A stretch of DNA of 47,766 nucleotides from a virus (taxonomy: Duplodnaviria > Heunggongvirae > Uroviricota > Caudoviricetes): IMG/VR virus record IMGVR_UViG_2541047895_000008, positions 1-47,766 of that record, one strand, 5' to 3'. The translations under genes and the position numbers were made by a program. The notes under the pieces were generated by a model. The model did no database searches. It worked only from the letters and a program-made list of their open reading frames with translations, and was not told where the DNA came from. Positions 42,055 to 42,626 of this stretch are shown here, piece by piece (the first letter of the stretch is position 1; every line of letters starts with the position of its first letter).

Positions 42055-42626
42055 TAGCTAATCAACAAAGCTAAGGTTGGTAATTAAGGAGTTCTCCACG
42101 GGTGAGGTGGAGTGCGTGCGCCGGACACGGGTGAGCATCCGGCACTGACAGTTTACTGAAAGGGTATTTCCATAAAAAGTCAGAGCATAACGCGAAAGCG
42201 CACGGCGAGGTTGCTGGTTCATAGATAGTCTGTCGTTAAATTTTCTTCGACCGTGCGCTTCCGGTTGTGGCACTCCGCGAAATGGCGCGGCGGTAAGTAT
42301 GGCGGGGTTATTCCTTCCCCGTTGAGGACACCGGGTTGTCAGGTTGACCATACGCTTAAGTGACAACCCCGCTGCAGCGCCCTCTGTTATCAATTTTCTG
42401 GTGACGTTTGGCGGTATCAGTTTTACTCCGTGACTGCTCTGCCGCCCTTTTTAAAGTGAATTTTGTGATGTGGTGAATGCGGCTGAGCGCACGCGGAACA
42501 GTTAAAACAGAAAACTGTGTTATGGGTGGATTCTCTGTATCCGGCGTTAATTGTTAACTGGTTAACGTCACCTGGAGGCACCAAGCACCGCATCAACAAA
42601 GTTCATTTGTAAAAATGGAGATAATT

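Follow-up and report, generated by a model that had tools for sequence, protein, structure and literature searches.

A conserved pseudoknotted RNA domain upstream of DicF in the untranslated ydfC–kil spacer of a Qin-type prophage operon

How should a stretch of an early phage operon be read when its coding strand holds no gene? The question is raised by a segment of 553 nucleotides (nt) at positions 42058-42610 of a 47,766-nt DNA from a Caudoviricetes virus (IMG/VR record IMGVR_UViG_2541047895_000008), the whole of which is hereafter called the window. A preliminary description, made from the letters alone, saw there a hairpin-dense gap rich in guanine and cytosine (GC) and proposed either a structured RNA or a decayed gene. 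The non-coding, structured RNA status of the segment is real. To judge from its sequence, it is the untranslated ydfC–kil spacer of a Qin-type dicBF operon, a locus already known for DicF, which is a small RNA (sRNA), and the finding as first flagged adds little by itself since the DicF locus was thereby re-discovered. Next to DicF, the spacer carries a domain with a core of about 110 nt, four helices and a pseudoknot, here called module B. We consider it very probable that the segment is an untranslated RNA-processing cassette of this lambdoid early-left operon, in which kil replaces dicB-ydfD; module B would most likely serve as a scaffold.

The identity of the locus follows from a megablast of the region against complete Escherichia coli genomes (n = 5426) and from the gene order of annotated genomes. 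Over 553 nt the spacer shows 96.2% identity to the ydfC-dicB spacer of the K-12 type, a stretch described in K-12 as a long untranslated region. Strain 2015C-4136CT1 matches at 100% and the identical RefSeq record labels the downstream gene 'kil', whereas thousands of other E. coli genomes are annotated ydfC … dicB, ydfD, exonuclease in the same place; the arrangement found here occurs in only 40 of the 5426 genomes at a query coverage of at least 80%. A K-12-type genome reads dicC / dicA, ydfA, ydfB, ydfC, a gap, dicB and ydfD, with which the window's order of dicC / dicA, ydfA, ydfB, ydfC and spacer agrees. The likeness to the Qin dicBF locus extends to the 52-nt core and U tail of DicF, its position after ydfC and its terminator, and the difference lies downstream, where kil (KilR-like) stands in place of dicB-ydfD. 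DicF thus sits where a dicBF-type operon has it, after ydfABC and before a division-inhibitor gene. The same spacer is found in phage Tritos, whose record has DicF annotated.

The absence of an open reading frame (ORF) of 60 amino acids or more on the + strand of 42058-42610, as stated in the preliminary description, is borne out by the ORF list. Such a gap is not unusual here, as the window holds eight longer + strand stretches of the same kind. The long ORFs of the segment are confined to the minus strand (42058-42393, 111 amino acids, and 42423-42599, 58 amino acids) and neither matches a Pfam family. The GC richness claimed for the segment does not hold: its 50.3% compares with 51.2% for the window and places it at the 39th percentile of same-size windows. 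Its sole GC-rich part is 42260-42383, with 60.5%.

In its relatives the segment is a mosaic. When phage genomes were searched with high sensitivity, ~42264-42370 proved common to phages with no other kinship in this region (among them cdtI, 2H10, Ayreon, Stx2c phages and Salmonella F1055, and P1-like phages at 78% identity), and ~42469-42592 had relatives in Rac, D6 and P7. For this reason, and on the strength of later structure work, the segment was divided into upstream hairpins (A), module B, DicF and module D. The spacer can be described as a chain of four RNA modules, namely a hairpin of ~15 base pairs (bp), module B, DicF and module D.

DicF is long known and was among the first bacterial sRNAs described. 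In the window it occupies 42396-42452 on the + strand, with its seed, its intrinsic terminator hairpin and its U tail. Rfam family RF00039 matches 42396-42447 over model positions 1-52 of 52 with 76.7 bits, against a gathering score of 48 (Rfam curated thresholds), and neither the sRNA nor its U tail differs from the K-12-type sequence. In the computed fold the first 14 nt are unpaired; a hairpin (-15.9 kcal/mol) and UUUUU come next. DicF went unrecognised in the preliminary description; the terminator-like hairpin and T-run that it noticed near 42430-42455 are real and are DicF's intrinsic (Rho-independent) terminator. Its proposal of a structured RNA was well founded, since DicF is accompanied by three more structured modules that comparative analysis shows to be conserved. 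Among the checks it had suggested, an Rfam scan returned DicF and a sub-threshold match to STnc100, and the comparison of related prophages for covariation revealed compensatory changes in both module B and module D.

Module B (42260-42383, + strand) is recognised by our covariance model R1 with 144.6 bits (E = 3e-41). The model finds exactly one copy in the window, the next best match scoring 13 bits. The structure was proposed by eye from comparison and then tested; five copies sufficed to show compensatory changes. The closing stem P1 pairs 42264-42271 with 42371-42378, P2 pairs 42275-42279 with 42286-42290 around a 6-nt loop (AAAUGG), P3 is a variable hairpin (42303-42307 with 42317-42321), and P4 (42333-42341 with 42361-42369) carries an invariant 19-nt loop. 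The pseudoknot forms between 42292-42294 plus 42297-42302 and 42348-42356, that is, between GG(U)…GUAUGG (42292-42302) and CCAUACGCU. Across 27 diverse sequences in a MAFFT-based alignment, 94.8% of the cells are paired, compared with 34-55% when partners are slid, and 12 pairs have changed on both sides against 4.1 +/- 1.3 in shuffles, none of 500 of which reach 12. With 69 distinct sequences the figures rise to 96.6% of cells and 14 two-sided pairs (3.4 +/- 1.2 shuffled); this alignment was fitted to the model, which somewhat favours the structure, and its sequences are related, though it is in line with both the slid controls and the MAFFT-based count. RNAalifold independently finds P1, P2 and the pseudoknot helix. 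Since G-U pairs are frequent, the + strand is the strand that folds. The minimum free energy (MFE) fold of module B alone did not recover the comparative structure (z = -0.4).

The domain is widespread. It is present in 4310 of the 5426 complete E. coli genomes (about 80%), in up to 8 copies per genome, and its P1-type form in 469 plasmids, which come from Escherichia, Salmonella, Klebsiella and Shigella. Pattern scans add at least 119 viral contigs, and the genome scan found true copies in E. albertii, E. ruysiae, Shigella, Citrobacter, Trabulsiella, Erwinia tracheiphila and Izhakiella. Module B occurs in prophages of at least seven enterobacterial genera. Pattern matches in unrelated phyla were set aside as chance, as they gave no score with R1. 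In a Shigella flexneri copy (locus L145, 1457-1577) the domain is truncated at its 5' side, P1 and P2 being replaced by unrelated sequence, probably through an insertion or rearrangement in a decaying prophage.

Annotation has largely passed this domain by. Among the Rfam matches over 41800-42900 at E <= 10, no family corresponds to module B; DicF and the weak STnc100 match are the only credible ones, and CRISPR-DR41, snoU49, tsr32 and sn3071 were discarded as noise. Nor did Rfam families cover module B or the variant terminators in 11 related loci, and no feature is annotated under module B in the records inspected. A full-text search for its invariant strings returned unrelated primer matches only, older papers on put-like elements, dicF-like elements and the P1 genome lying outside that search. 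The searchable literature describes neither its fold nor its occurrence in other genera and in P1-like elements, nor its linkage to terminators other than DicF, and part of this may be found in older work. In several phage records, ORFs labelled 'hypothetical protein' run antisense to module B and the terminator behind it (all on the minus strand: L003, the cdtI locus, 2545-3000; L007, 2284-2856; L008, 2545-2739; L163, 3679-3834). Since the covariation of module B is of the RNA type, these are probably mis-annotations.

Across lineages, module B is followed on its 3' side by a short pyrimidine-rich linker and then by a hairpin with a U-run. A terminator lies within 150 nt in 75 of the 77 distinct contexts 3' of module B, compared with 86 of 400 random segments of the same loci, both being counted with one simple detector applied alike. 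At least 10 unrelated hairpin sequences serve in this position, including the DicF, cdtI, P1 and Salmonella types and long versions in Erwinia, Izhakiella and Trabulsiella. This suggests that DicF is one version within a modular family that combines a conserved 5' domain with a variable sRNA or terminator. Variants without module B also exist: a pentaloop takes the place of its interior and P1 is left as a mini-hairpin (GGUUGUG-AAUAA-CAAC). Examples are Rac-SA53 (locus L010, 2380-2560), phiSTEC1589-Stx1c (L164, 3600-3760) and at least 120 viral contigs (including L168-L247), and in viral contigs these forms are roughly as common as those carrying module B.

In cdtI (L003, 2680-2800) and at loci L007, L037, L148, L158 and L161, from cdtI-, Salmonella- and Erwinia-type lineages, another conserved element replaces module D after the terminator. 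It is a long perfect hairpin of ~17 bp (ACAAAACAGAGAAGAGCA…UGUUCUUCUCUGUUUUGU) around a conserved core, and it is not covered by any Rfam family. Its 5' strand is complementary to the motif and P1 strand just 5' of module B.

Upstream of module B, the spacer begins with module A1 (42058-42192, + strand), a promoter-proximal part that varies among Qin-type lineages and folds with z = -1.5. Its hairpins pair CUCCAC with GUGGAG (42094-42112) and GCCGGA with UCCGGC (42119-42143), and CACGGGUGAG is present twice. A motif duplication had already been noticed here, and CACGGGTGAG indeed occurs exactly twice, at 42097 and 42126, with 0.16 expected by chance. The ~15-bp hairpin at 42193-42263 (GAAAGCGCACGGCGAGG / CUUCG-A-CCGUGCGCUUCC, + strand) is an inverted repeat with a variable apical loop (z = -2.9). 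It is the long-range stem of the preliminary description and proved longer than claimed there, its arms 42193-42205 and 42251-42263 spanning 13 nt at 92% complementarity. The two GNRA hairpins reported alongside it could not be upheld. One CGCGAAA, at 42191, lies within the 5' strand of this stem, and its CGC/GCG mini-stem is not conserved since many homologs read ACACGAAAGCG; the other, at 42276, belongs to P2, whose 6-nt loop is no tetraloop. In 41 distinct homologs the stem of the 42193-42263 hairpin is kept and the apex is free to vary, a pattern that fits an RNase III substrate. The 341 nt 5' of DicF, taken together, fold far better than shuffled controls (z = -4.8).

Studies of K-12 offer a frame in which these parts can be placed. 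There, DicF exists as a 190-nt and a 53-nt species (for the 190-nt precursor, see Faubladier et al. 1990; Ragunathan et al. 2023, preprint). RNase III is needed for the 5' end of the former and RNase E for that of the latter. The two build up in stationary phase; the 190-nt form, which is stable, also accumulates on inactivation of RNase E. An internal promoter was not found for these species, nor was a full-length read-through transcript detected. Read-through transcripts are cut by RNase III to give a 72-nt DicF. In the window, 190 nt counted back from the DicF terminator lead to ~42259-42262, at the 3' foot of the upstream stem and 2-5 nt before P1. Since the count ends there, the 190-nt species would consist of module B, the linker and DicF, and the 42193-42263 hairpin would be the RNase III site that makes its 5' end. 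The length was used because the published '+813/814' RNase III site did not translate consistently into window coordinates when reckoned from a promoter-like site at 41314-41342. The AU-rich single-stranded linker (42379-42395, + strand; …CUCUGUUAUCAAUU) is identical to the K-12 type and would hold the RNase E cleavage site from which the 5' end of the 53-nt DicF arises. The accessible literature treats the extra 137 nt of the 190-nt form as mere precursor sequence. Our comparison shows that they are not arbitrary precursor, but a conserved pseudoknotted domain.

Transferring the K-12 processing events to the window's coordinates gives the following course. Transcripts from the DicA-like-repressed promoter would run through ydfA, ydfB and ydfC into the spacer, where the DicF terminator would stop most of them. 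A cut by RNase III in the 42193-42263 stem would yield an RNA of ~190 nt composed of module B, linker and DicF, from which RNase E, acting in the AU-rich linker, would free the 53-nt DicF. Together with Hfq, DicF would base-pair with ftsZ and other messenger RNAs (mRNAs) and repress them. Read-through transcripts would proceed into module D and kil, and an RNase III cut in the closing helix of module D would part the longer 72-nt DicF from the kil mRNA. Termination, the RNase III and RNase E cuts, repression by DicF and the 72-nt species are published for K-12, whose spacer is 96% identical. Module B itself would act as a nuclease-resistant 5' domain that isolates the seed-plus-terminator RNA from the mRNA and sets the RNase III and RNase E cut sites. 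Most likely, we infer from comparison only, it is a conserved folding and processing scaffold common to the prophage cassettes that join module B to a variable terminator. RNase III stems likewise bracket stable RNAs in ribosomal RNA operons and in the early regions of T7 and lambda, as the 42193-42263 stem and the closing helix of module D would do here, but the RNA released in the present case is an Hfq-dependent regulatory sRNA with a structured domain.

Two nested long-range complementarities of 10-11 nt (about 90%) link the 5' spacer to module D (42119-42128 with 42537-42546, and 42148-42158 with 42508-42518). They could form a processing stem around module B and DicF in read-through transcripts.

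Several points weigh against the processing scaffold. The variants without module B keep the upstream hairpin, a terminator in the DicF position, module D and kil, so that the complex domain is not required for processing as such. The loops of module B are near-invariant from Escherichia to Erwinia and P1, which exceeds what a simple scaffold needs and suggests a specific partner. The RNase III site has been positioned by length arithmetic. Finally, the MFE fold of the 193-nt RNA fails to give the fold supported by covariation; as the fold of module B alone also misses it, single-sequence folding is uninformative for this domain.

The regulatory readings of module B, taken together, carry roughly one third of the probability. 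In their most novel form, which is a minor though serious possibility, module B would represent a phage regulatory RNA of a new class: bound to RNA polymerase or to some host or phage factor, it would gate the first early-left terminator and decide between a DicF-type sRNA (termination) and kil, dicB and the recombination genes (read-through).

One rival of the processing scaffold makes module B a transcription element acting in cis. The nascent RNA, by itself or helped by a host or phage factor, would alter RNA polymerase so that it passes the first early-left terminator, which lies right behind module B; in N-less lambdoid phages this would take the place of N/nut, with a put- or nut-like logic. 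The position of module B fits this proposal: it always lies on the early-left sense strand, downstream of the repressor gene and promoter and ahead of the main early-left genes, with a terminator behind it in nearly all contexts (the 75 of 77 given above). In cdtI it is found about 285 nt past a strong PL-like promoter, ahead of all early-left genes. Expression of dicB and kil has to pass the DicF terminator, and that read-through happens is clear from the 72-nt species, although a full-length read-through transcript was not detected in K-12. No N-like protein was found in the window's early-left operon, and an N homolog lies upstream in 0 of 108 loci carrying module B compared with 12 of 92 loci without it. 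These locus counts are not phylogenetically independent, and 69 of the 92 loci without module B are N-less ydfA-type operons too, so that its loss does not require N. A lambda-type nut site, with boxA, a boxB hairpin and N in the operon, was not found here: there is no N homolog upstream, and the weak boxA-like motif (UGCUCUYU) just 5' of module B in several lineages is a partial match that lacks the UUA of the consensus and overlaps the RNase III stem in Qin types. It was not used as evidence.

The put RNA of phage HK022 offers a comparison for such an element. It makes RNA polymerase resistant to terminators via the beta' zinc-binding domain. As with module B, it is a structured RNA encoded in cis in the early-left region of an N-less lambdoid phage, upstream of terminators. 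Sequence and architecture are not similar, however: put has about 70 nt and two stems and is present as putL and putR, whereas module B, of about 110 nt, has four helices plus a pseudoknot and is single. Each prophage holds just one copy, never in the rightward operon, and R1 finds no second one in the window behind the rightward promoter. Homology to HK022 was rejected, since BLAST against its 19-33 kb region gave chance matches only and R1 none. All in all, we regard a terminator-gating role as unlikely.

Alternatively, module B could be the functional product itself, a stable RNA of ~135-190 nt that binds a host or phage protein in trans, with the terminator or DicF as merely its 3' end. 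The stability of the 190-nt form in K-12 and its accumulation in stationary phase would suit such a product, as would the extreme conservation of the loops, and a co-immunoprecipitation study of Hfq reported an enriched interval 5' of dicF. In P1-like elements, module B and its terminator follow dmt as a seemingly stand-alone unit. However, no promoter was detected directly 5' of module B, either in P1 (promoter scan) or in K-12 (published experiment); a TTGCTC-17-TAATAT promoter picked by eye 5' of module B in P1 failed the scan. No partner is known, module B is dispensable in many prophages, and the known phenotypes are explained by DicF alone. A role in trans is accordingly rather improbable to us.

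A riboswitch-like sensor of a ligand or protein, in which the invariant GGCGGUA… of module B would pair alternatively with the 3' strand of the terminator, is very improbable. The layout does recall an aptamer, with a pseudoknotted domain, invariant junctions and a terminator directly after, and the 5' strand of most terminators in the DicF position reads GGCGGUA as well. The MFE fold of the 193-nt RNA even pairs the 5' half of module B with the 3' strand of the terminator. Yet the complementarity fails for P1-type and Salmonella-type terminators, and the variants without module B bear the same GGCGG terminators. At locus L031 the terminator has changed internally from GGCGG/CCGCC to GGUGG/CCACC and module B still reads GGCGG, hence the two do not covary. 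The context is one of phage early genes, with no metabolic gene association.

The weakest reading, a decayed protein-coding gene such as an annealase remnant, is almost certainly wrong: although the minus strand has its 111-aa ORF and several phage records annotate hypothetical proteins for ORFs that overlap the homologous stretch, this ORF runs antisense to the operon, neither minus-strand ORF has a Pfam match, substitutions are compensatory and of the RNA type with + strand-specific G-U pairs, the K-12 stretch is described as untranslated, and the exonuclease encoded downstream is not of the RecE or lambda-Exo type. The missing annealase partner of the preliminary description is itself a weak premise. 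The 824-amino-acid exonuclease is DEDD-type and Rv2179c-like, and in related phages with Exo VIII, Gam and Bet/RecT these genes lie 3' of the exonuclease and not in the spacer, so that there is no reason to expect an annealase there, and the spacer shows no trace of a remnant. In the window the exonuclease gene is directly followed by xis, int and the transfer RNA (tRNA) attachment site.

After DicF comes module D (42453-42600, + strand), an STnc100/PasD-like structured leader of kil. It matches Rfam STnc100 (RF02076) with 31.2 bits (E = 1e-4), under the gathering score of 47. Its closing helix pairs GAUGUGGUG (42467-42475) with CACCGCAUC (42586-42594), and a hairpin CCUGG-AGGCA-CCAAG lies at ~42569-42585. 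In a joint alignment of D-type and STnc100-type sequences, 9 of the 19 predicted pairs are compensatory, with both sides changed, and the two have in common a closing helix, a hairpin on the 5' side and a CCKGG-AGGCA-CCNGG hairpin. By sequence and predicted structure, module D is related to STnc100, which has recently been proposed to be related to PasD, both being prophage sRNAs. In contrast to these, module D is not in a late region and forms the 5' leader of kil, dicB or tciA: the element stands 5' of kilR in Rac, of dicB in K-12 and of tciA in P1 and D6. Its closing helix starts about 15 nt after the DicF tail, a position that would fit an RNase III cut behind the 72-nt DicF.

The DicF 5' seed (GGUGACGUU, 42400-42408) is perfectly complementary to AACGUCACC in module D (42564-42572), and the bases just 5' of DicF (42391-42400) are complementary to a second segment of D (42508-42517). 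It is conceivable that DicF pairs with the leader of its own downstream gene, and the seed complementarity may also be chance since the motif in D is invariant even with other seeds. The window also holds a bona fide STnc100 (100.8 bits) on the minus strand at 30826-30998, presumably in the late-gene regulatory region, about 770 nt 3' of a cluster of three tRNAs (31772-32018, minus strand). A similar tRNA association is seen in P1 and D6 for the D/STnc100-like element 5' of tciA.

The genes that frame the spacer complete the picture of the operon. On its 5' side lie a helix-turn-helix repressor of 139 amino acids (DicA-like), a divergent Cro-like gene, a DUF1391 gene (YdfA) and two small ORFs (YdfB/YdfC-like). 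The last coding gene is ydfC-like (41836-42054, + strand, 72 amino acids), the homologous place being annotated 'protein YdfC' in RefSeq E. coli. On the 3' side, the + strand ORF called mechanically (42615-42848, 77 amino acids) starts at ATG 42615. As GGAG at 42617-42620 precedes ATG 42627 and KilR of Rac-SA53, with the same start context, has 73 amino acids, the true start of kil (42627-42848, + strand), a KilR-like cell-division inhibitor, is probably ATG 42627. Then follow the 824-aa protein (42972-45446), xis, int, the tRNA with the attachment site and a host gene. The 824-aa protein is annotated 'exonuclease / Exo VIII' and shows a C-terminal Rv2179c-like DEDD 3'-5' exo(ribo)nuclease domain only (residues 642-814); its first ~640 residues are acidic, of low complexity and without Pfam match.

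Two further observations concern the architecture of this prophage. An exact 10-nt direct repeat, ATCAACAAAG, brackets the non-coding cassette at 42061-42070, just 3' of the ydfC stop, and at 42592-42601, just 5' of the kil ribosome-binding site. It could be due to chance (about 0.15 expected) or mark the junction left when the cassette was inserted. Elsewhere, the minus strand at 34937-35111 carries a full-length sok antitoxin RNA (RF01794, 113.5 bits), implying a hok/sok-type toxin-antitoxin locus within the prophage.

Module B thus emerges as an under-described component of these prophages, widespread, unannotated, absent from Rfam and tied to a variable terminator, and it merits an RNA family of its own. 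It is also a concrete candidate for the means by which N-less lambdoid prophages control the passage into their toxic early-left genes. Should the view of module B as a new class of phage regulatory RNA be true, it would supply the N-independent early antitermination that is apparently missing in Qin-, cdtI- and Stx2c-type lambdoid phages and in P1-like elements.

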